Shown piece after piece: positions 3,758-14,823 of a DNA stretch of 64,000 bases. Origin of the DNA: Alphaproteobacteria bacterium (lineage in GTDB: Bacteria > Pseudomonadota > Alphaproteobacteria > Bin95); the NCBI GenBank assembly GCA_963665325.3, contig CAXXWS020000002.1:224001-288000 (forward strand). The letters are read 5' to 3'. The notes below the pieces were generated by a model, which saw only the letters and a list, made by a program, of their open reading frames with translations, was not told where the DNA came from and did no database searches. Position numbers and translations under genes: made by a program. How positions within the stretch are numbered: the first letter of the stretch is position 1; every line of letters begins with the position of its first letter.

Positions 3758-4405
3758 ATGGCTGACCGCCGCCGCAACCGGCGCATCGCCGCCGCCCTCG
3801 TGGCGGTGCCGATGGCAATGGGCGCGCTCGCCTGGGCGTCGGCCCCGCTCTACCGGCTGTTCTGCCAGGTCACCGGCTTCGGTGGCACGCCCGGCATAGC
3901 GGCGGAAGCGCCGCAGGCGGCTGCGGACGCGCCCAGCATCGAGATTCGGTTCAACGCCGACATCGCGCCCGACCTCGACTGGCGTTTCGGCCCGGTCGAG
4001 CGCGCGGTCACGGTCCGGCTCGGCGAGCCGGCGCTCGCCTTCTACCGGGCGGAGAACCTCGGCGAGGAGCCCGTGACCGGCGCGGCGACCTTCAATGTCA
4101 CGCCGCTCAAGGCGGGCGCCTATTTCAGCAAGATCGACTGCTTCTGCTTCACCGAGCAGCGCCTGGGCCCCGGCGAGAGCGCGGACATGCCGGTCTCGTT
4201 CTTCGTCGATCCGGAGATCGCGGACGACCCGAATGTCCGCGATGTCGGGACGATCACGCTGTCCTACACGTTCTTCAGGTCGGAAGAAGAGCCGGAGCCG
4301 AGCCGACAAGAGGCCGACGCCGCCGCGTCAAACGCGGCGAATGTTACGAATGGCGGCGTAAGCGCCGCCGCCCTGACCAACCGGGAGCAGACCCATGGCG
4401 GATAG
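3758..4405 (+). CDS. ctaG: cytochrome c oxidase assembly protein CtaG/Cox11
   Basis: PLYRLFCQVTGFGGT, YFSKIDCFCF copper motif and ITLSYTF. Confidence 0.96.
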   Translation: MADRRRNRRIAAALVAVPMAMGALAWASAPLYRLFCQVTGFGGTPGIAAEAPQAAADAPSIEIRFNADIAPDLDWRFGPVERAVTVRLGEPALAFYRAENLGEEPVTGAATFNVTPLKAGAYFSKIDCFCFTEQRLGPGESADMPVSFFVDPEIADDPNVRDVGTITLSYTFFRSEEEPEPSRQEADAAASNAANVTNGGVSAAALTNREQTHGG

Positions 4406-5213
4406 CCACGTCCAGAAGCACCCCTACCATCTGGTCGATCCGAGCCCCTGGCCGTTAGTCGGCTCCGTCGCGGCCTTCCTCGCGACCATGGGTGGGGTGC
4501 TCTTCATGCATGACGGAGTGGTGTGGGTCATGGCGCTCGGCCTGGTCCTCATCCTTGCCACCATGGCCGTGTGGTGGCGCGACGTGATCCGCGAGGCCGA
4601 GCATGAGGGCCACCACACCCCGCCCGTGCAGATCGGGCTGCGCTTCGGCATGGCGTTGTTCATCGCCTCAGAGGTGATGTTCTTCTCGGCATTCTTCTGG
4701 GCGTTCTTCGACGGCGCGCTGTTCTTCGGCGCGGAGGAGATGCCGGGCCGCATCGAGGCGACGGGCGGCGTCTGGCCGCCGACCGGCATCGTTCCGTTCG
4801 AGGCGTTCGGGCTGCCGTTCCTGAACACGCTGATCCTGCTGCTTTCCGGCGTCACCGTTACCTGGGCGCACCACTCGCTGCTGCATGGCGACCGGGCGGG
4901 GCTGATCCAGGGGCTTGCGTGCACCGTCGCGCTCGGCGTGCTGTTCACGGGCTGCCAGGTCTTCGAGTACAGCCATGCCGCCTTCGGCTTCCGCGAGGGC
5001 ATCTATCCCTCGGCCTTCTTCATGGCGACGGGCTTCCACGGCTTCCATGTCATCATCGGCACCTGCTTCCTGACGGTCTGCCTGTTCCGGGCGATCAAGG
5101 GCCATTTCCGGACCGACCACCATTTCGGCTTCGAGGCGGCGGCCTGGTACTGGCATTTCGTCGATGTCGTCTGGCTGTTCCTGTTCTCGGTCGTCTATAT
5201 CTGGGGCAGCTAG
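4395..5213 (+). CDS. coxC: cytochrome c oxidase subunit III
   Basis: HPYHLVDPSPWP, ATGFHGFHVIIG and AAWYWHFVDVVW. Confidence 0.98.
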   Translation: MADSHVQKHPYHLVDPSPWPLVGSVAAFLATMGGVLFMHDGVVWVMALGLVLILATMAVWWRDVIREAEHEGHHTPPVQIGLRFGMALFIASEVMFFSAFFWAFFDGALFFGAEEMPGRIEATGGVWPPTGIVPFEAFGLPFLNTLILLLSGVTVTWAHHSLLHGDRAGLIQGLACTVALGVLFTGCQVFEYSHAAFGFREGIYPSAFFMATGFHGFHVIIGTCFLTVCLFRAIKGHFRTDHHFGFEAAAWYWHFVDVVWLFLFSVVYIWGS

Positions 5214-5216
5214 GCC

Positions 5217-5888
5217 ATTCGGCGGCGCATCCCGTTCATCCTGTTCGTCCTGCCGGCGCTCGCGGTCCTGATCGGCCTCGGCGTCTGGCAACTCGACCGG
5301 CGGGAGTGGAAGCGGGAGCTGATCGACAGGGCGGCCGCGCGCCTCGCCGAACCTCCGCTCACCGCGCTCGCCGGCATCGGCACCGGCGATGCCTGGCGGC
5401 GCGTCAGGCTGGAAGGCTCCTGGGAAGGGCCTGAACTGCTGCTCCAGAGCCGGACATGGCACGGGCGCGCGGGCTTTGACGTGCTGGCGACCTTCCGGCC
5501 CTCGGAAGCGGCGGTGTCGGTGCTGGTCAACCGGGGATGGGTGGAGCCCGCCCGCAGCGCGCCGGACTCGCGTGCGCCGCCGTCGGCAGCGCTTGAAGGG
5601 GCGGTGCGGTTTCCGAGCGAGCCCGGCAGTCTCGCCGTCGATAACGACCCGGAGCGCGGGATCTGGTTCCATATCGACCCCCAGGCCGTCGCGGCGCATC
5701 TCGGCCGCCCGCTCGTGCCCTTCTACATCCAAGCCGTGCCCGCCGCCGGCGGACCGGACTGGCCGCGTGCCCGTCCGCCGGAGCCGCGCTTCCGCAACGA
5801 CCATCTGCAATATGCGCTTACCTGGTTTGCGCTCGCCGGGGCGCTGGCTATCCTCTACCTGGTCTGGCGCCGCCGGGCGGGAAGGTAA
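5217..5888 (+). CDS. SURF1/Surf1-family cytochrome oxidase assembly protein (start uncertain, probably non-canonical)
   Basis: LGVWQLDRREWK, VLVNRGWV and NDHLQYALTWFALA SURF1 motifs. The frame is open from 5214 but has no ATG/GTG/TTG before 5481; ATT 5217 is proposed. Confidence 0.85.
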   Translation: MRRRIPFILFVLPALAVLIGLGVWQLDRREWKRELIDRAAARLAEPPLTALAGIGTGDAWRRVRLEGSWEGPELLLQSRTWHGRAGFDVLATFRPSEAAVSVLVNRGWVEPARSAPDSRAPPSAALEGAVRFPSEPGSLAVDNDPERGIWFHIDPQAVAAHLGRPLVPFYIQAVPAAGGPDWPRARPPEPRFRNDHLQYALTWFALAGALAILYLVWRRRAGR

Positions 5889-5909
5889 GGACCGAGATGA
5901 GAGAACGGG

Positions 5910-7250
5910 ATGTCCCGCCAGCTTCGCCTTAACCTGTTCGTCCACAGCCGCGGCCATCACGAGGCGTCCTGGCGCCATCCCGAGGCCTCGCCGCTTGCGC
6001 TGACGGACTTCGAATTCCATCGGGAACTTGCCTGCAAGGCGGAAGACGCGGCGTTCGACTCGATCTTCCTGGCGGACAGCCTCTCCATGTCCAGCGAGGT
6101 GACGCACACGGCGCGCAGCTGGCTGGAGCCGGTCACGCTCCTGGGCGCGCTCGCCGCGGCGACCTCGAAGATCGGACTGATCGCGACGGCCTCGACCACC
6201 TATACCGAGCCTTTCAACCTCGCCCGCCAATTCGCCTCGCTTGACCACATCAGCAACGGGCGCATCGGCTGGAACATCGTGACCTCCTGGTCGGTCGCCG
6301 CGGCGCACAATTACGGCGACGACATCCAGGTGAGCCACGCCGACCGCTATGCCCGCGCCGAGGAATATATGACGGTCGCCAAGGCGCTCTGGGACAGCTG
6401 GGCCGACGACGCCGTGCTCGACGACCGGCCGGCGGGCCGCTATGCGAAGCCCGGTAGCATCCATGCGACCGACCACGCCGGGGAGCATTACAGGGTCGCC
6501 GGGCCGTTGAATGTGCCCCGGTGTCCGCAGGGGCGACCGGTCTTCGTGCAGGCGGGCTCGTCGGAGACAGGGCGCGATTTCGCCGCCCGCCACGCCGAGG
6601 TGGTGTTCACCGCGCAGCTGGAGAAGGCGACGGCGCAGGCCTTCTATGCCGACCTGAAGGCGCGGGCGGCGAGGGCCGGGCGCGATCCCGACCGGGTGGC
6701 GATCCTGCCGGGGTTCAGCCCCCTCATTGCGGACACCCAGGAGGAGGCGGAGCGCCTCGTTCTGGAGTTGAACGGCCTGGCCGACCCGGAGGTCGGCAGG
6801 CGGCGGCTTTCCGGACGCTTCGGCGGCTTCGATTTCAGCCATCTCGAATTGGACCGGGCGCTGACGGCGGCGGACTTCCCCGACCCCGATACGGTCGAGG
6901 CGGCGCGAAGCCGGGCGGCGACGATCGTGGGCCTGGTCGAGCGCGAACGCCCGACCTTGCGCCAATTGCTGGCGAAGCTCGCCGGCGCGCGCGGCCACTA
7001 CACTTTCGCCGGCACGCCGGAGCAGACGGCGGACTTCATGGAGGAGTGGCTGGGCGACGGCGCTGCGGACGGCTTCAACCTGATGCCGCCCGTGCTGCCC
7101 TGGATGCTGGACGCCTTCATCGAGCGGGTCCTGCCGATTCTGCGCGAACGGGGCCTCTTCCGCGAGGCATATTCAGGCGACACGCTCCGCGCTCATTACG
7201 GCCTCGCCCGGCCTGCAGCCGAAGTTCCGCCGGCCGCCCGGCCGATCTAG
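5910..7250 (+). CDS. NtaA/DmoA/SoxA-family FMN-dependent luciferase-like monooxygenase
   Basis: FDSIFLAD, IGLIATASTTYTEPFNLARQFASLDHISNGRIGWNIVTS, QGRPVFVQAGSS and DGFNL. Confidence 0.92.
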   Translation: MSRQLRLNLFVHSRGHHEASWRHPEASPLALTDFEFHRELACKAEDAAFDSIFLADSLSMSSEVTHTARSWLEPVTLLGALAAATSKIGLIATASTTYTEPFNLARQFASLDHISNGRIGWNIVTSWSVAAAHNYGDDIQVSHADRYARAEEYMTVAKALWDSWADDAVLDDRPAGRYAKPGSIHATDHAGEHYRVAGPLNVPRCPQGRPVFVQAGSSETGRDFAARHAEVVFTAQLEKATAQAFYADLKARAARAGRDPDRVAILPGFSPLIADTQEEAERLVLELNGLADPEVGRRRLSGRFGGFDFSHLELDRALTAADFPDPDTVEAARSRAATIVGLVERERPTLRQLLAKLAGARGHYTFAGTPEQTADFMEEWLGDGAADGFNLMPPVLPWMLDAFIERVLPILRERGLFREAYSGDTLRAHYGLARPAAEVPPAARPI

Positions 7251-7273
7251 CCCGAAGCAGGAGGAGCAACGCC

Positions 7274-8164
7274 ATGAGCGTCACCCCCATCGCCTTCTAC
7301 TCCGAGGGCTTCAAGCTGATGGGTGACCTTTACCGCCCGGACGGCCTCGCGCCGGGAGAGCGGCGGGCGGGCATCGTGCTTTGCCACGGCTATACCGGGG
7401 TGAAGGACCTTTACCTGCCGGACAATGCCCGTGTGCTCAACGAGGCCGGCTATGTCGTGCTCGCTTTCGACTACAAGGGCTGGGGCGAGAGCGAGGGGCC
7501 GCGCACGCGCCTGGCGCCCTACAGCCGGGTGGCGGACGTGCAGGCGGCGCTGACCTTCCTCGGCGCGCAGGAGGAAGTGGACGAGGCGCGGCTCGGCATC
7601 TACGGCACCAGCTACGGAGGCGCCACGGTGGTGTGGACCGGCGCGGTGGACCGGCGGGTGAAGTGCGTCGTCAGCGTGGTCGGCATCGGCCACGGCGAGC
7701 GGTGGATGCGCAGCGTGCGCCGGCCGGATGAGTGGTTCGACCTGCTGGAACGCTCCGCCGGGGACCGGGTGAAGCGCGCCATTGAGGGCGAGTCGGAGTG
7801 GGTCGAGCGGAGCGAGGTGCTGCTGCCGGACCGGCAGTCGGCGGAGCTCGCCGCCGCCGCGCGCCGCGATATTCCCTCGGCCCTCAACACGCTGCCGCTC
7901 GAATATGTGGACGAGACGCTGGGCTTCCATCCGGAATGGATCGTGGACAGGATCGCGCCCCGCCCGGTGCTCTTCATCGCCACCGACGACGACCGGCTGG
8001 TGCCGCCGGAGGAGTCGCAGGCGCTCTACGAGAAGGCCGGCGAGCCGAAGAAACTGGTCGTGCTCAAGGGCTACGGCCACTACGAGGTCTATGTGGACCC
8101 CGCCTTCACCGAGGTCATGGACGAAACCGTTGCCTGGTTCCGGGAGCACCTGCCGGCGGAGTAG
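7274..8164 (+). CDS. alpha/beta hydrolase (FrsA/S9-S15-like)
   Basis: LCHGYTG, FDYKGWGESEG, nucleophile elbow GTSYGG, D in TDDDRLVP and H in GHYEVY; RBS GGAGGAG upstream. Confidence 0.88.
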   Translation: MSVTPIAFYSEGFKLMGDLYRPDGLAPGERRAGIVLCHGYTGVKDLYLPDNARVLNEAGYVVLAFDYKGWGESEGPRTRLAPYSRVADVQAALTFLGAQEEVDEARLGIYGTSYGGATVVWTGAVDRRVKCVVSVVGIGHGERWMRSVRRPDEWFDLLERSAGDRVKRAIEGESEWVERSEVLLPDRQSAELAAAARRDIPSALNTLPLEYVDETLGFHPEWIVDRIAPRPVLFIATDDDRLVPPEESQALYEKAGEPKKLVVLKGYGHYEVYVDPAFTEVMDETVAWFREHLPAE

Positions 8165-8273
8165 GGGGCGGTTGCCGACCTTACCTTTCGGCTTGGAGGG
8201 TGCAAAAGGACCGCGTTACCTTTATGTCTGCGGATCGCACCAGGGAGAACGGGCGTTTGGCAGGAGCCCTGCG

Positions 8274-8747
8274 ATGACCGATGTTCCGATATCGGATGGA
8301 GAGCTCGACGCCATGCGTTCGGAGCCCAAGCGGGTTACGAATCCACAGGCGCGTTGGCACGAAAAGCCGGGGGGCAACCAGCAGAAGAATTTCAATCTGG
8401 TTGCCGGGCATGACGATGCGAAGAGGTTTCGTCTCTATCTCCGGCAGAACCTTGATGACGAACAGGACTTCTCATGCGGTCTTGCGCTGGTCCAACCGGG
8501 CGGAAAGCCGGTCAGCCTTGTCCGGTATAACGGTTCCAGCCATCGGCATGGCGATATCCTGTTTCATTGCCATATCCATCGAGCTACGGAAGAAGCGAAT
8601 ATGGCGGGGAAAAAGATCGACAGCCATGCTGAAGCGACGGACGGTTACAAGACCTTGGACGGTGCATTGGCCTGCCTGATCGACGACTGCGGCGTTGAAG
8701 GAATCTTGGCTTCGCACGACACACGGGACTTGTTCGATGACCATTGA
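8274..8747 (+). CDS. hypothetical protein, DUF6978-like (His-rich motif LVRYNGSSH...HCHIH)
   Basis: 157-aa ORF with AGGAG RBS and AT-richer codons; overlaps the next gene. Its layout resembles the small proteins usually found upstream of DUF1828 genes. Confidence 0.7.
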   Translation: MTDVPISDGELDAMRSEPKRVTNPQARWHEKPGGNQQKNFNLVAGHDDAKRFRLYLRQNLDDEQDFSCGLALVQPGGKPVSLVRYNGSSHRHGDILFHCHIHRATEEANMAGKKIDSHAEATDGYKTLDGALACLIDDCGVEGILASHDTRDLFDDH

Positions 8748-9519
8748 CGCCCTGTTGCTGGAGAAGTCCCTGTGCGAACGCCTGTGCGCGACTGTGACCG
8801 TTCATGAGCGCCCGGACGGAACCATCATGATCGATACTCCGTTCACATTTCCAGACGGAGACAGTTATCCGATTTATCTTTCCGGAACGCGCTATGGCAA
8901 AGTGGTCCTCAGTGATCGGGGCCATACCATGTTGCACATCAGCTACGAAAACGATGTGGATATGTTTTACGAGGGCCAGCGATCCGTTCTGCGGGAAAAG
9001 ATTGTAAAGGAAGCTGGAATCGATGAGGATAGAGGGATTTTTTCTGTTGAAACCACGCCCGACCGAATTGCCGACTCCTTGTTCGATCTCGGGCAGGCGC
9101 TGACGCGAATATACGACTTGACATTTCTCAACAGGGAACGTGTCAACTCGACTTTCTATGAAGACTTGAAGTCCTTGTTGTTCACTATAGTCGACGAAGA
9201 TGGTGCAGAGAGGGATTACATTCCTTCAGACGTGCCCGATGGAAGCAACTATCCGGTGGATTACCGGATCGAAGGCAAGGATGGGATACCGATTTTCCTA
9301 TACGGTGTGCCGAACAGGGACAAGGCGCGACTGACAACCATTACGCTGTCGCATTTCCTGCTCAATGATCTGCATTTCAGTTCAGTTATCGTATTCCGGG
9401 ACCAGAGGGAGATTCCGTCATTCGACCTCGCTCGTTTGACCAATGTCTCGGATACTGCCGTAGCGTCGCTTGAGGCGGAACGGGATTTTCGGCGGAAGAT
9501 CGAACGAATCGCCGCGTAG
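8737..9519 (+). CDS. DUF1828-domain protein (C-terminal DUF1829-like region)
   Basis: N-terminal IDTPFTFPDGDSYPIYL...VVLSDRGHTM matches the DUF1828 pattern; C-terminal YPVDYRIE segment; lower GC. Confidence 0.75.
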   Translation: MTIDALLLEKSLCERLCATVTVHERPDGTIMIDTPFTFPDGDSYPIYLSGTRYGKVVLSDRGHTMLHISYENDVDMFYEGQRSVLREKIVKEAGIDEDRGIFSVETTPDRIADSLFDLGQALTRIYDLTFLNRERVNSTFYEDLKSLLFTIVDEDGAERDYIPSDVPDGSNYPVDYRIEGKDGIPIFLYGVPNRDKARLTTITLSHFLLNDLHFSSVIVFRDQREIPSFDLARLTNVSDTAVASLEAERDFRRKIERIAA

Positions 9520-9595
9520 TGCGTAAACCAGGGAAGACGGCGATGAACGGCGGTTTTGCAGCCCGGCGCGGCGGCGGGCGGGGCGAGGGGTGACG

Positions 9596-10978
9596 ATGCG
9601 CTATCTCAGCACGCGCGGCGAGGCGGCGGCGCGGGACTTTTCCGGCGTCCTGCTGAGCGGCCTCGCGGAGGATGGCGGCCTCTGGCAGCCGGCGGAATGG
9701 CCCCGGCTGGACGAGGCCGCGCGTGCGCCGGGCGCGGGCTATGCGGAGCGGGCCTTTGCGGTCACCCACCCGTTCGCGGCGGGTGCGCTGGAGGCGGCGG
9801 ACTGGCGGGTCCTGATGGGCGATGTCTATGCCGGCTTTCGCCACCGCGCGGTCGCGCCGCTCGTGCAGCTCGACACAAATCTGTGGCTGATGGAGCTCTT
9901 CCACGGGCCGACATTCGCCTTCAAGGACCTGGCGATGCAGGCGCTTGGGCGACTGTTCGATCTTGTGCTGAAGGCGCGCGGCGAGCGCATCACCATTATC
10001 GGCGCGACCTCGGGCGACACGGGTGCGGCGGCGGTCGAGGCTGTTCGCGGGCTGGAGACCATCGACCTCGTCATGCTCTATCCGCACGGGCGCATCTCGG
10101 ATGTGCAGCGCCGGCAGATGACAACGGTCGAGGCGCCCAACATCCACACGGTGGCGCTCGAAGGCACGTTCGACGACTGCCAGGATCTGGTGAAGGCGCT
10201 GTTCGCCGACACCCGGCTCAGCGAGGAATGGCGCTTCGCCGCCGTAAACTCGATCAACTGGGCCCGCGTCATGGTCCAGACGGTCTATTACGTCCATGCG
10301 GCGGCCCAACTGGGCGGCGGGCCGGTGGCCTTCGCCGTGCCGAGCGGCAATTTCGGCAATGTCTATGCGGGCTATGCCGCGCGCGAAATGGGCCTCGACG
10401 CGCCGCGCTTCATCGTGGGCTCGAACAGCAATGACATCCTCGCGCGCTTCTTCGAGGCGGGCGACATGTCCACCCGACCGGTGACGCCAAGTTGGTCGCC
10501 CTCCATGGACATCCAGGTGTCCAGCAATTTCGAGCGCCTGCTGCACGACCTGCTGGGCCGCGACGGCCGGGCCGTCGCCCGGCATATGGCCGCCTTCCGG
10601 CAGAGCGGGCGGCTGCCGCTCGACGAAGCGCGCTGGCAGGCGGCGCAGGGGCTGTTCCGGGGCCATGCGGTGGACGACGAGGGCACGCTCGCGCAGATCG
10701 CCCGCACCCACGCCGAGACCGGCATGACCGTCGATCCGCACACGGCCGTCGGCATTGCGGCGGCGCTAGCATTGCGCCAGCCCGATATACCGACGGTTGC
10801 GCTGGCGACTGCCCATCCGGCCAAGTTTCCCGACGCCGTGGAACGCGCCATCGGCCGCCGCCCGCCGCTGCCCGATGCGCTCGCCGAACAGGCTGGACGC
10901 CCCGAGCGGGCGGAGCGGATGGCGAACGACCTCGGCCTTCTCAAGACCTTCATTCGCGAAAGGGTGCGCCGGCCATGA
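9596..10978 (+). CDS. thrC: threonine synthase
   Basis: MRYLSTRG, GLAEDGGL, ELFHGPTFAFKD (PLP Lys), ATSGDTG, NSINWARV and ATAHPAKFP. Confidence 0.97.
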   Translation: MRYLSTRGEAAARDFSGVLLSGLAEDGGLWQPAEWPRLDEAARAPGAGYAERAFAVTHPFAAGALEAADWRVLMGDVYAGFRHRAVAPLVQLDTNLWLMELFHGPTFAFKDLAMQALGRLFDLVLKARGERITIIGATSGDTGAAAVEAVRGLETIDLVMLYPHGRISDVQRRQMTTVEAPNIHTVALEGTFDDCQDLVKALFADTRLSEEWRFAAVNSINWARVMVQTVYYVHAAAQLGGGPVAFAVPSGNFGNVYAGYAAREMGLDAPRFIVGSNSNDILARFFEAGDMSTRPVTPSWSPSMDIQVSSNFERLLHDLLGRDGRAVARHMAAFRQSGRLPLDEARWQAAQGLFRGHAVDDEGTLAQIARTHAETGMTVDPHTAVGIAAALALRQPDIPTVALATAHPAKFPDAVERAIGRRPPLPDALAEQAGRPERAERMANDLGLLKTFIRERVRRP

Positions 10979-12189
10979 GCGTCACCGTCTCCACCTTGCC
11001 GAACGGCCTCAGGGTCGCCACCGACACCATGACCACCGTCGAGACCGTCTCGCTCGGCATGTGGGTTGGCGTCGGGGCGCGCCATGAGCGCGAGGCCGAG
11101 AACGGCGTCTCGCACCTGCTGGAGCACATGGCCTTCAAGGGCACGGAACGACGCACGGCCGGCGACATCGCCCGCGAGATCGAGGCGGTGGGCGGGTTCC
11201 TGAACGCCTATACGGCGCGGGAGGTCACGGCCTATTACGCCAAGGTGCTGAAGGAGGATGCGGCGCTGGCGGTCGATATCCTGGCCGACATCCTGACCGG
11301 CTCCGTCTTCGACGCGGCGGAACTGGAGCGCGAGCGCACCGTCATCCTGCAGGAGATCGGGCAGGCGCAGGACTTTCCGGAAGACGTAGCCTTCGACCTG
11401 TTCCAGGAGACTGCCTATCCCGCGCAGGCCATGGGGCGCAGCATTCTCGGTCGCCCGGAAGTGGTGCGCTCGCTGCCGCGGGAGGCCGTGGCGGGCTGGA
11501 TGGGGGAGCGCTACCGGGCGCCGGCCATGGTGCTGGCGGCGGCGGGGCATATCGAGCACGAGGAGCTGCTCGGCCTGGCGGAGCGCTATTTCGCGGACCT
11601 GCCGACGGCGCCGGCGCCCGTGCCGGAGGCTGCGCACTATGCGGGCGGCGACGTGCGCGAGCGCCGCGACATCGAGCAGAGCCACCTGGTGCTGGGGTTC
11701 GAGGGGCCGAGTTTCCGCGAGGCCGGGTTCTACCCCGCGCAGGTCTTCTCCACGCTCTACGGAGGCGGCATGTCCTCGCGGCTCTTCCAGGAGGTGCGGG
11801 AGAAGCGCGGGCTGGTCTATTCGATCTATTCCTTCGCCTCGTCGGCCGCCGACACCGGGATCGTCGGCGTCTATGCCGGCACGGCGAGCGAGAGCGTGGA
11901 CGAAGTGCTCGCCATCGTGCGCGGCGAACTGGAGGACCTGGCGGGCGGCGGGCCGGACGAGGACGAGCTTGCCTGCGCCCGCGCCCAGCTTCGCGCCAGC
12001 CTGCTGATGGCGCGCGAAAGCACCTCCTCGCGCTGCGAGCAGCTTGCCCAGCAACTCCTGGTCCACAACCGCCCGATCCCGCCGGAAGAGCTGACCGAGC
12101 GCGTCGAGGCGGTGGGTGCAGCCGATGTCACGGACATCGCTGCCCGCTGCGCCGCCGCGCCCTCAAGCCTCGTTGTGCTCGGGCCCTGA
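10975..12189 (+). CDS. M16 family zinc peptidase (pitrilysin/MPP-like)
   Basis: Inverted zinc motif HLLEH...FKGT, NAYT and GGMSSRLFQEVREKRGLVY; ATGA overlap with thrC. Confidence 0.95.
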   Translation: MSVTVSTLPNGLRVATDTMTTVETVSLGMWVGVGARHEREAENGVSHLLEHMAFKGTERRTAGDIAREIEAVGGFLNAYTAREVTAYYAKVLKEDAALAVDILADILTGSVFDAAELERERTVILQEIGQAQDFPEDVAFDLFQETAYPAQAMGRSILGRPEVVRSLPREAVAGWMGERYRAPAMVLAAAGHIEHEELLGLAERYFADLPTAPAPVPEAAHYAGGDVRERRDIEQSHLVLGFEGPSFREAGFYPAQVFSTLYGGGMSSRLFQEVREKRGLVYSIYSFASSAADTGIVGVYAGTASESVDEVLAIVRGELEDLAGGGPDEDELACARAQLRASLLMARESTSSRCEQLAQQLLVHNRPIPPEELTERVEAVGAADVTDIAARCAAAPSSLVVLGP

Positions 12190-12207
12190 GCGAAGGAAAA
12201 CACGGAC

Positions 12208-12945
12208 ATGGCGAAGACGGCAATTGTAACGGGCGGGAGCCGGGGGATCGGGGCTTCGGTTTGCCGGCTGCTGGGGGCGGACGGCTGGAATGTCGTCGTG
12301 AACTACGCCGGCAGGGCCGATGCCGCGGAGGCGGTTGTGCGCGAGGTGGAGGCGGCCGGCGGGCGCGCGCTTGCCGCGCAGGCGGATGTGGCGCTGAAGG
12401 CCGACGTGGACCGGCTGTTCGCGGCGGGCGACGAGGCGTTCGGAGGGCTCGACGCGCTGGTCAACAATGCGGGCGTGATCGGGCGGCGGGGCCGGTTCGA
12501 GGCGCTCGACGGGCCGGTGATGGAGGAGGTACTGGCCGTCAATGTGCTCGGCTGCATGCTGTGCGCCCTGGCCGCGATCCCGCGCCTCTCTACCCGCCAC
12601 GGAGGGCGCGGCGGCTCTATCGTCAACATTTCCTCGGGCAATGCCGTATCCGGCGGTCCGGGCGAGTCCGTCCTTTACAGTGTGTCCAAGGGCGCGGTGA
12701 ACTCGCTCACCATCGGCCTCTCGCAGGAGCTTGCCGGCGAGGGCGTGCGCGTCAACACGGTCAGCCCCGGCTTGACCGCCACCGACATGCCGGGACCGGA
12801 AAAGCTCACCGCCATCGGGCCCACCATCCCGATGGGCCGCGTCGCCCATCCCGACGAGATCGCCGAGGGCGTGGTTTGGCTGCTGTCCAACAAGGCCTCC
12901 TATGTCGCGGGCGCCAATCTCCGCATAGGCGGCGGGCGACCCTGA
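12208..12945 (+). CDS. short-chain dehydrogenase/reductase
   Basis: TGGSRGIG, NNAG, YSVSKG (YxxxK) and VNTVSPG. Confidence 0.93.
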   Translation: MAKTAIVTGGSRGIGASVCRLLGADGWNVVVNYAGRADAAEAVVREVEAAGGRALAAQADVALKADVDRLFAAGDEAFGGLDALVNNAGVIGRRGRFEALDGPVMEEVLAVNVLGCMLCALAAIPRLSTRHGGRGGSIVNISSGNAVSGGPGESVLYSVSKGAVNSLTIGLSQELAGEGVRVNTVSPGLTATDMPGPEKLTAIGPTIPMGRVAHPDEIAEGVVWLLSNKASYVAGANLRIGGGRP

Positions 12946-12973
12946 ACCGAACTCCCGCCCGGCGGATGCGTCC

Positions 12974-13918
12974 ATGAGACCGTTGGACAATCGGGCGCCG
13001 CCGGGGCAGCCTGCCGGCATCATGATGGACCGATTCCCCTATGTTCCGCTGCCGGAGCGCCCGAAGCTGGTCTGGCCCGACGGCAAGCGGCTCGCCGTCT
13101 GGGTGCTGCCCAATATCGAGCATTACGAATACCGCCCGGAATTCGTGAACCAGCGCAATGCCTGGCCGCGTATGCCGGCCCCGGATGTGGTCGGCTACGG
13201 CGTGCGCGACTACGGCAACCGCGTCGGCGTGTGGCGGATGCTCGATGTGTTCGCGCGGCACGGCATCAAGGCCACGGTCTCGCTGAATTTCGGCGTGATC
13301 GAGCACTACCCCGAGGTCTGGCAAGCCTTGCGCGAGCGCGGCGACGACATCCTCTGCCACGGCTTCTACAACACGAGATATCTCTGGGGGCTCCCGGAAG
13401 AAGAGGAGCGCGCGGTCATCCGCGACTGCGTCGAGACCTACGCGCGTGCCACAGGCGGCGAGATGCTGCCGGGCTGGTTCGGCCCCGCGGTCTCCGGCAC
13501 CTTCAACACGGCCGACATCGTGAAGGAGCTCGGCATCCGATATACGGCCGACTACTACCATGACGACCAGCCGACCCTGGTGCACACGAAACACGGGCCG
13601 CTGCCCTGTGTGCCCTATTCGATGGATATCAACGATGCGCAGGTCTATCGCTGGCAAAGCGAGGGCGTGGAGTTCGCGCGTATGATCCGCGACGCCTTCG
13701 ACACCCTTTACGAGGAAAGTGCGGAGACCGGGCGGGTGCTGGCGATCTGCCTGCACCCCTTCCTCTACGGCCAGCCGCACCGGCTCAAATATCTCGACGA
13801 GGCGCTGGCCTATGTGATGAGCCACGAGGGCGTGTGGCAGGCGACCGGCTCCGAGATTACCGACTGGGCGATGCGGGAATGGCTGCCCTCATGGGCCATG
13901 CCGGAGGCGGAGGCATGA
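12974..13918 (+). CDS. polysaccharide deacetylase family protein (PuuE/allantoinase-like)
   Basis: RPKLVWPDGKRLAV, DYGNRVGVWR, DDQP and ICLHPFLYGQPHR. Alternative starts at 13022/13025. Confidence 0.88.
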   Translation: MRPLDNRAPPGQPAGIMMDRFPYVPLPERPKLVWPDGKRLAVWVLPNIEHYEYRPEFVNQRNAWPRMPAPDVVGYGVRDYGNRVGVWRMLDVFARHGIKATVSLNFGVIEHYPEVWQALRERGDDILCHGFYNTRYLWGLPEEEERAVIRDCVETYARATGGEMLPGWFGPAVSGTFNTADIVKELGIRYTADYYHDDQPTLVHTKHGPLPCVPYSMDINDAQVYRWQSEGVEFARMIRDAFDTLYEESAETGRVLAICLHPFLYGQPHRLKYLDEALAYVMSHEGVWQATGSEITDWAMREWLPSWAMPEAEA

Positions 13919-14823
13919 GCGAGCAGACGCGCCGCTTCCGCGACGGCCCAGGCTACGACCACCCCTGGTTCGACTGGCCGCCGCCGGAGGCCCCGCCCGC
14001 CTGGCCCGGCGGCGCGCGGCTTGCGGTGATGCCGCTCATCCATGTCGAGCATTTCGAGCTGGACCCCGACCCGGATGCGTTTGCCGACCCGCGCTTTGCC
14101 GGCGCGCTCGGCAGCTACCGCCCGGACTACAACAATTTCACCCGCCGCCTTTACGGCCTGCGCGTCGGCGTCTGGCGCATTTTCGACATCCTGAAGGCGC
14201 ACGGGCTTCGGGCGACCGTCGCGCTCGGCGCCGCCGCCGCCGAGGAGTGCCCGCAGATTGTTGAGCGCGCGCTCAAGGACGGCCATGGCATTGCCGCGCA
14301 TGGAACGGTCGCCAACCGGATGATTTCCGAGCGTATGAGCGAGGCGGAGGAGCGCGCCTTCATCGCCGAGTCGGCTGCGCGGCTCGAAGCCTGCCTGGGC
14401 AACCGGCCGCGCGGCTGGGTCGGGCAGGACCACGGCGAAAGCTCGCGCACGCCGGGCCTGCTGGCGGAGGCCGGCTTCGACCATGTCATCGACTGGCCGA
14501 ACGACGAATGTCCGGTACCCATGCTGACGGTGCCGACAATGCTCTCGATCCCGGCCCACACGGAATGGGACGACGCGGAGCTGTTCGCCGTGCGCAAGGT
14601 CGATGCCTGGCGCTATCCGGAACTCATCGCGGATGCCGCCGAATGCCTGCACGGCGAGGGCGGGCGCATGATGACGCTCGGCATCCACAGCTGGATCTTC
14701 GGCCAGCCGCACCGCAGCCGCCATCTCGACGCGGCGCTCGGCCGGCTGCTCGAACTGGACGGCCTCTGGAATGCGACCTCGGACGAGATCGCCGATACCA
14801 TGTTGGAGACTGCACAGCCATGA
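13915..14823 (+). CDS. polysaccharide deacetylase family protein, second paralog
   Basis: WPGGARLAV, YGLRVGVWR, PRGW, WPNDECP and GIHSWIFGQPHR; ATGA overlap. Confidence 0.85.
   Translation: MSEQTRRFRDGPGYDHPWFDWPPPEAPPAWPGGARLAVMPLIHVEHFELDPDPDAFADPRFAGALGSYRPDYNNFTRRLYGLRVGVWRIFDILKAHGLRATVALGAAAAEECPQIVERALKDGHGIAAHGTVANRMISERMSEAEERAFIAESAARLEACLGNRPRGWVGQDHGESSRTPGLLAEAGFDHVIDWPNDECPVPMLTVPTMLSIPAHTEWDDAELFAVRKVDAWRYPELIADAAECLHGEGGRMMTLGIHSWIFGQPHRSRHLDAALGRLLELDGLWNATSDEIADTMLETAQP

Follow-up and report, generated by a model that had tools for sequence, protein, structure and literature searches.

A horizontally acquired DUF6978-like and DUF1828 gene pair upstream of thrC in an alphaproteobacterium, a candidate anti-phage module of the PDC-M24 type

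Results

The A-B cassette and its flanks

The window analysed here is a stretch of 64,000 nt from the genome of an Alphaproteobacteria bacterium (assembly GCA_963665325.3, contig CAXXWS020000002.1, positions 224,001–288,000 of the forward strand). The subject of this study is a cassette of two co-directional genes, A and B, that lies just upstream of thrC in the window and is probably a horizontally moving, two-protein anti-phage module; the cassette and its flanks are listed in Table 1. An earlier reading made from the letters alone (the sequence-only reading) had described two overlapping open reading frames (ORFs) of 157 and 260 aa at this site, with codons richer in A and T than those of the neighbours and no mobility gene, and had proposed that they were acquired horizontally as a translationally coupled pair. 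Translation of the ORFs and Pfam assignment of the flanks confirm the layout. The two genes overlap by 11 nt, the ATG of B lying at 8737 and the stop codon of A at 8745–8747. In agreement with the compositional claim, windowed GC content is 0.50–0.57 across the pair compared with 0.67–0.72 in both flanks, and GC content at third codon positions (GC3) is 0.64 for A and 0.62 for B compared with 0.86–0.92 in five neighbouring genes. Among the ORFs listed for positions 4000–14000 none was recognised as an integrase or transposase, the Pfam check covering four neighbours. No sigma-70-type promoter was found near the cassette by a consensus scan, and the single terminator-like site, on the minus strand, is at chance level.

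Contigs from four RNA libraries, 95–99% alike to the window, cover positions 8250–8994, 8730–8894, and 8918–9467; identical contigs came from two libraries, and one contig of 576 nt begins at 8250 and spans the A/B junction. These matches are a hint that the cassette is transcribed. The same four runs gave no coverage of the hydrolase gene or thrC, which is uninformative on expression at this locus because the contigs are those of relatives.

Table 1. Coordinates of the cassette and of the genes that flank it in the window
Feature	Position	Strand	Description and basis
Whole inserted segment	8172..9536	+	About 1.37 kb, from the hydrolase stop codon to the conserved thrC leader; BLAST boundaries and GC drop
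Cassette leader	8165..8273	+	AGGAG Shine-Dalgarno-like motif at 8260–8264, 9 nt before the A start codon; direct reading
Gene A	8274..8747	+	157 aa, DUF6978-related, motifs RYNG-xx-H-x-H and H-I-H; translation
Gene B	8737..9519	+	260 aa; ORF translation
Gene B, N-terminal domain	8737..9132	+	Residues 1–132, DUF1828, type-III-secretion-chaperone/YbjN-like fold, predicted docking surface for A
Gene B, C-terminal domain and stop codon	9133..9519	+	Residues 133–260, DUF1829-like, predicted restriction-endonuclease-like alpha/beta fold
Left flank, alpha/beta hydrolase	7274..8164	+	Pfam Hydrolase_4/Abhydrolase_1; core genome, outside the cassette
Right flank, thrC, threonine synthase	9596..10978	+	Pfam Thr_synth_N, PALP, THR4_C; core genome, outside the cassette

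The insertion site in congeneric genomes

To place the boundaries of the insert, positions 7300–10900 of the window were compared by BLAST with 16 genomes of the same genus. Both flanking genes are present in all 16, with nucleotide identities of 83–94% for the hydrolase gene and 82–91% for thrC. Hydrolase matches stop at about 8157–8171 and thrC matches resume at about 9537. The junction was readable in 11 of these genomes, the hydrolase and thrC lying on separate contigs or far apart in the remaining ones (G001, G002, G003, G006, and G015). Gap lengths were measured from the hydrolase stop codon to the point aligned with the thrC ATG of the window (9596). Five congeners have an empty site (G009, G010, G004, G013, and G014, with gaps of 96, 83, 86, 83, and 23 nt, respectively), whereas the gap in the window genome (G000), which holds the cassette, is 1432 nt. 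The same cassette, at 88% nucleotide identity, fills a gap of 1579 nt in G016. In G012 the gap of 2104 nt contains HEC-01B (E 4.9e-76) together with HEC-01A split into two ORFs; gaps of 679 and 950 nt in G007 and G008 each contain an HTH-Xre (helix-turn-helix) antitoxin-like gene beside a small ORF, which is weakly Gp49/HigB-like in G008 only. The longest gaps, 3641 nt in G005 and 3676 nt in G011, hold a pyruvate carboxylase gene in G005, with G011 judged from size and left-end sequence only. Every insert is bounded on one side by the hydrolase stop codon and on the other by the thrC leader, a conserved stretch of about 80 nt.

The GC and GC3 anomaly, the empty sites in five congeners, and the patchy distribution of the pair together support, at the level of sequence comparison, the proposal that A and B are a horizontally acquired insert. 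Genes like B occur in 5 of the 16 genomes of the genus and in 6 of 40 other relatives. The pair is intact in the window genome, in G016, and, at another locus, in G005; it has decayed in G001, where A is frameshifted, and in G006, where an internal-deletion remnant is left. Between the window genome and G016 the ratio of nonsynonymous to synonymous divergence is 0.13 for A and 0.09 for B, and by this measure both are real genes under purifying selection. Synonymous divergence between the same two genomes is 0.53–0.58 in the cassette compared with 0.28–0.40 in four flanking genes, which fits a single insertion that predates the species split. The cassette has retained a GC3 of about 0.62–0.64 within a genome of GC3 about 0.9, showing no amelioration despite a synonymous divergence that suggests long residence.

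A 14-nt direct repeat with two mismatches (8239–8252/9527–9540) was considered as a target-site duplication and rejected, because G016 carries the same insertion without the repeat and the right copy belongs to the conserved thrC leader; ten short repeats of this kind occur in the 2-kb region. The view of the hydrolase/thrC slot as a pure defence hotspot is true only in part, since G005, and apparently G011, hold a housekeeping pyruvate carboxylase there (1151 aa in G005). The insert of G012 (locus L031, G012:C1:4489600-4494000, positions 928–2761) corresponds to the candidate defence system HEC-01; its ATPase HEC-01A is divided between ORFs of 228 and 201 aa, each matching one half of the same model, and this copy looks frameshifted and is probably decaying.

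Protein A

Protein A matches the phage family phrog_27326 (E 1.3e-40) and no NCBIfam family. Three homologues about 52% identical to A were scored against the Pfam family DUF6978 (PF22398); one of them (P0103, 31.7 bits) passes the cut-off of 29.6 bits and two (P0112, 26.4 bits; P0101, 25.9 bits) fall just short, so that the label DUF6978-like given by the sequence-only reading is fair for A through its relatives, although A itself draws no match to the family at E≤1. DUF6978 is also found in 12–25% of the members of the ESM Atlas clusters nearest to A. The AlphaFold2 model of A, with a mean predicted local distance difference test score (pLDDT) of 90.4 and a predicted template modelling score of 0.85, is a beta-meander with three helices, and its one match in BFVD is an uncharacterised siphovirus protein (E 3.1e-4). 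Profile sequence searches for solved relatives of A and of B gave none at E≤0.5. The quoted motif LVRYNGSSH...HCHIH is present at residues 82–102, and its histidine cluster is invariant across the superfamily: His-90, His-92, His-100, and His-102 are unchanged in 30 close and 15 diverse sequences. Across 15 diverse pairs Lys-19, Arg-57, Ser-67, and the segment Arg-84-Tyr-85-Asn-86-Gly-87 are likewise invariant. Metal binding by A is putative, being suggested by this residue conservation.

Protein B

The DUF1828-type N terminus claimed for protein B is clear: residues 34–125 match Pfam DUF1828 (PF08861) with 63.4 bits (threshold 22; E 2.5e-17) over profile positions 1–91 of 91. This is the sole Pfam domain of B, there being no match to DUF1829 (PF08862) at E≤1 and no NCBIfam family; B also matches phrog_5059 (E 1.4e-37). 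By language-model features only, the C-terminal part is close to DUF1829 clusters in the ESM Atlas, at 0.91–0.93. The model of B (pLDDT 84.8) has two domains, residues 1–132 and 133–260. In VIA-align searches the N-terminal domain superposes on 3cxj_A (Z 10.4, root mean square deviation (rmsd) 2.7, 115 residues aligned) and on the chaperone Spa15 (2xga_A; Z 9.6, rmsd 2.8, 109 aligned). The C-terminal domain superposes on PspGI (3bm3_B; Z 9.9, rmsd 2.8, 119 aligned), Cdn1 (8z4i_A; Z 9.7, rmsd 3.2, 112 aligned), and Can2 (7bdv_A; Z 9.3, rmsd 3.3, 112 aligned), and restriction enzymes and the nuclease domains of Can2, Card1, and Cdn1 are among its top matches (Z 8.3–9.9). Foldseek matched it to Can2 (8q44_B) with a probability of 0.99 but an E value of only 2.3e-3.

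Invariant residues of B include Asp-40-Gly-41-Asp-42, Asp-60, Tyr-172, Asp-175, and Lys-196. The conserved polar set of the C-terminal domain, made up of Asp-143, Tyr-172, Asp-175, and Lys-196, is non-canonical. Asp-175, part of a Pro-Val-Asp segment, opens the predicted second strand; Lys-196 is in the turn after the third strand, and Asp-195 before it is nearly invariant only among 32 close homologues. The segment YPVDYRIE...FLYGV, which had been likened to a PD-(D/E)XK fold, occupies residues 172–191. The likeness holds in part, in that restriction-endonuclease-like folds are matched, but the third core strand (residues 185–191) does not contain the canonical (D/E)xK motif, so that nuclease chemistry of B is no more than putative.

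Predicted complex of A and B

Prediction of the A-B complex gave a score of 0.87, compared with 0.00 for the best of three controls. In a benchmark 116 of 157 solved complexes attained this score, as did 2 of 215 mismatched pairs, the counts being approximate because our own alignments were used. At least 92% of the contacts were common to the runs, and the pLDDT of the partner was at least 86. On the B side the predicted interface spans residues 21–101, including the D-G-D loop (Asp-40-Gly-41-Asp-42), and on the A side it comprises residues 31–37, 55–71, 78–97, 102, and 113–119, including His-90 to Gly-93 and His-102. The interface coincides with residues that are invariant in both proteins. 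The prediction supports binding of A to the N-terminal domain of B.

Distribution and linkage of the pair

A profile search with A against 1.84 billion representatives found 1166 clusters (50% identity) at E≤0.001. Among the best 150 of these, nearly all are stand-alone proteins of about 150–170 aa, the longest having 342 aa; no convincing fusion of A to B was seen, either there or in two longer matches of 320 and 348 aa. A genome scan with one genome per species returned 167 relatives, of which the best 80 loci (identity at least 48%) were analysed. Their titles place them in more than ten higher taxa, among them Alpha- and Gammaproteobacteria, Acidobacteriota, Chloroflexota, Acidimicrobiia, Binatia, Nitrospirales, Spirochaetia, Rhodothermales, and a cyanobacterium.

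The tight coupling claimed for the two genes is general. The next gene after A is B at all 80 genomic loci, on all 15 IMG/VR viral contigs, and in four Pseudomonas phages; the locus of phage PACT201, annotated too fragmentarily to be of use, was left aside. In the 80 loci B starts between −4 and +70 nt from the end of the A match, except at L067, where B is in pieces and these set in 360 nt after that point. A copy of B that is essentially full length is present at 76 loci, and the other four have truncated copies, one of them cut by the contig end. The GC content of the pair is below that of its own 5-kb flanks in 71 of the 80.

Neighbouring genes

The 1105 neighbouring proteins from the 80 loci were clustered and the cluster representatives were scanned against Pfam and PADLOC, a restriction-modification neighbour being counted within 10 kb on the same strand. 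Such a neighbour is present at 38 of the 80 loci, and any listed defence or toxin-antitoxin cluster at 45. A ResIII-type helicase (about 1030 aa) and a type III methyltransferase (about 950 aa; PDLC03632, 1335 bits) each occur at 21 loci. Both are present at 18; most of these are co-directional res-A-B-mod arrays whose genes lie tens to hundreds of nucleotides apart, and congener G005 has exactly this arrangement. At seven loci a DrmMI/type IIG gene of 1360 aa lies directly upstream of the pair, and type I genes are found at seven (hsdM at six, hsdS at three, hsdR at four), with hsd genes flanking the pair at L062, L069, and L072. Other recurrent neighbours are IetA (five loci), IetS (four), PDC-S01 (five), MNT (eight), HepT (six), and UvrD/NERD helicases (six). 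A scan of the 70 closest neighbours that had no annotation contributed three further methylase or type IIG genes (Eco57I, MmeI, or N6_Mtase), two transposases, one terminase, and two toxin-antitoxin genes. The four-gene layout of ResIII helicase, A, B, and type III methyltransferase recurs at L061, L076, L092, L094, L097, L105, L109, and other loci; the gap that holds A and B sometimes also contains an MNT/HepT pair, and IetAS or UvrD/NERD genes follow further downstream.

In viral genomes the pair closely follows a phrog_4 CI-like repressor in the same orientation (13 of the 15 IMG/VR contigs) or lies directly behind cI (S24 and HTH domains), as in Pseudomonas phage 5399. Genes at the repressor-operon position of temperate phages are expressed in the lysogen and are classically exclusion genes such as lambda rexAB. 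A link with defence loci and with prophage immunity regions, the neighbourhoods to which the sequence-only reading had pointed, is thus present in the family.

Other features of the window

The thrC leader contains a 16-codon upstream ORF (9543–9593) with its own GGAG-type ribosome-binding site; 2 nt separate the end of this ORF from the thrC start codon. About 80 nt of leader around it are conserved across the genus; an ORF of the same length is readable in G009, and in G010 its frame appears to continue into thrC. The small ORF is not threonine-rich and is therefore not a classical attenuator. On the minus strand ARAGORN reports a tRNA-Gly(CCC) at 5361–5454, which with its 94 nt would be an exceptionally long tRNA-Gly; both strands of the surrounding region carry long ORFs.

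Discussion

A probable anti-phage module

We favour the reading that the pair is a horizontally moving two-protein anti-phage module, serving either defence or superinfection exclusion, and put its probability at roughly 0.55. An anti-phage role is probable because related pairs are usually found inside restriction-modification loci or behind phage repressors. In such a module A and B would be co-expressed by way of their overlapping stop and start codons, and the chaperone-like N-terminal domain of B would clamp the conserved histidine-rich face of A in a complex. The restriction-endonuclease-like C-terminal domain of B would then be the output part, cleaving or binding nucleic acid, and A would restrain or aim it until infection; this division into a sensing and an acting partner is our proposal. 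That the C-terminal domain works as a nuclease effector is a tentative detail, which we hold to be doubtful. A bolder version is unlikely: the pair may be a new kind of two-protein effector in which His-90, His-92, His-100, and His-102 of A meet the D-G-D loop of B in a composite catalytic or sensing centre, possibly a shared metal site, that controls a diverged nuclease-like domain. If true, a composite centre of this kind would be a mechanism seen in no characterised defence or toxin-antitoxin system.

Several observations weigh against an anti-phage role or against its mechanistic details. The association with defence genes rests on adjacency and co-orientation, read without a background rate for random genes. 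At about half of the 80 loci the pair stands by itself among housekeeping genes, and the window copy is without an adjoining defence gene. Our literature search on PDC-M24, DUF6978, DUF1828, and DUF1829 found no functional study of the pair or of PDC-M24. The RNA-library contigs are assembled sequences from relatives, in which DNA carry-over is possible. For protein A, Foldseek gave no match in the PDB at E≤0.001, and the best match of a wide VIA-align search (Z 5.7, rmsd 3.9, 94 residues aligned) is under the usual noise level; judged on its model, A is a protein without a recognisable fold or catalytic motif. For protein B, flavodoxin-like folds (cobalamin-binding and CheY-like) score Z 8–8.7 against the C-terminal domain, near the values of the nucleases, and with no (D/E)xK in its third strand this domain may not be a nuclease.

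Alternative explanations

The alternative that survives best, although improbable, is a toxin-antitoxin-like addiction module in which one protein, most plausibly B with its nuclease-like domain, is toxic, A neutralises it by binding, and the pair persists by stabilising the DNA that carries it, with no role dedicated to phage. Small size, gene overlap, and a tight predicted complex would suit such a module, as would the rapid gain, loss, and decay of the pair inside one genus. MNT/HepT, PIN, and Xre/MbcA genes are frequent neighbours, and the HTH-Xre antitoxin-like gene of G007 and G008 uses the very slot that the cassette occupies in the window. However, Pfam and NCBIfam searches of A and B found neither an HTH or ribbon-helix-helix DNA-binding domain nor a known toxin or antitoxin family, as type II systems would have. 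Addiction modules are typically common on plasmids, whereas a tblastn search of 72,556 plasmids with B gave no match. Placement in restriction-modification operons and phage repressor operons also fits defence better, and a toxin-antitoxin pair may at the same time provide abortive-infection defence.

A role as an accessory module of restriction-modification is less probable again. In that case the pair would be a nuclease or regulatory subunit working with the ResIII helicase and type III methyltransferase or with type I enzymes, and the window copy would be an orphan. The res-A-B-mod loci described above, which come from several phyla and include that of congener G005, argue for such a role, and the upstream helicase matches the type III restriction endonuclease model weakly (E 6e-6), so that a separate nuclease-like protein could help it. 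Against this, the pair adjoins three different classes of system (type I, type III-like, and type IIG/DrmMI), and MNT/HepT pairs use the same slot, which is the behaviour of cargo. The pair is also present without a restriction-modification gene nearby, in the window and at about half of the loci, and in phage repressor operons, and the solo copy is still under purifying selection.

It is least likely of all that the pair serves the prophage, in lysogeny control or counter-defence, with chromosomal copies as prophage remnants: the position behind CI-like repressors and the PHROG families of both proteins point that way, but phage genes are absent from the surroundings of most chromosomal copies (one terminase among the 70 additional neighbours), many lie inside restriction-modification operons, the window insert has clean junctions and no other phage DNA, and genes of the repressor operon are classically of the exclusion type.

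The anti-phage reading remains the one we prefer. The family is large, is also carried by temperate phages, and sits where defence genes sit. The window copy is a clean natural experiment: it stands alone, is intact, can be compared with isogenic-like empty sites in sister species, and offers definite residues for mutation. Protection against phage, if the pair provides it, would validate a catalogued candidate and bring a new fold, together with an uncommon combination of domains, into bacterial immunity; if it does not, a limit of nomination by "guilt by embedding" would be flagged.

Comparison with known systems

The C-terminal domain of B superposes, as a model, on the nuclease domains of Can2, Card1, and Cdn1 and on PspGI. 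As in Can2 and Card1, this nuclease-like domain follows a non-catalytic N-terminal domain, which in B is however chaperone/YbjN-like and not CARF. The likeness to PD-(D/E)xK nucleases is limited by the missing canonical (D/E)xK motif and by structural matches of only 8–13% sequence identity.

A second comparison is with DS-6B/HipAD. In this system (DefensePredictor, Science 2026; PMC13092281), a protein with DUF3037 and DUF1829 is the non-kinase partner of a validated two-protein defence system, by which DUF1829 is newly implicated in defence, and it is predicted to bind its partner and DNA. The DUF1829 domain is what the C-terminal part of B resembles in its language-model features, whereas the partner there is the HipA kinase and not a DUF6978 protein, and the N-terminal domain is DUF3037 and not DUF1828.

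With lambda rexAB the pair shares form and place, both being two-gene modules of temperate phages that closely follow a cI-like repressor in the same orientation. It differs in that A and B showed no likeness to RexA or RexB in sequence or fold and drew no membrane-protein match in the searches run, none of which was aimed at RexA/RexB or at transmembrane segments.

The closest relation is to PDC-M24, a candidate already in PADLOC-DB, and the pair is for this reason not the undescribed system that the sequence-only reading took it to be. PDC systems are "guilt-by-embedding" defence candidates, nominated by their embedding in BREX, DISARM, or type I restriction-modification systems (Payne et al. 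2024, bioRxiv 10.1101/2024.01.29.577857). Like PDC-M24, the cassette consists of two adjacent co-directional genes, the first for a DUF6978-type protein of about 150 aa and the second for a DUF1828-bearing protein of about 255 aa. Window B matches the PDC-M24B models PDLC04540 (E 1.7e-15, residues 27–148) and PDLC04539 (E 8.1e-15), overall across residues 16–148; the match is confined to the N-terminal domain, at profile positions 22–142 of 256, whereas B of the relative L084 matches nearly the full model (positions 23–253 of 256). The link of A to PDC-M24A is less direct. Window A matches no PADLOC family at E≤1 and six closer homologues match none at E≤0.01, which again weighs against the assignment, so that A is linked to PDC-M24A through a chain of homology only: phage homologues 37–42% identical to window A match over almost the whole model, and the E values of four phage or viral homologues (ph5399, L122, L134, and L129) range from 1.2e-8 to 9e-3, the last being marginal and the others lying between about 1e-8 and 1e-5. 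PADLOC rules would probably not call the window locus. The window copy is solo, whereas many of its relatives are embedded beside type I, DrmMI/type IIG, and type III-like neighbours. By these sequence matches the type of cassette, a DUF6978-type gene followed by a DUF1828/DUF1829-type gene, is already catalogued as PDC-M24, and the window pair is a divergent relative of it.

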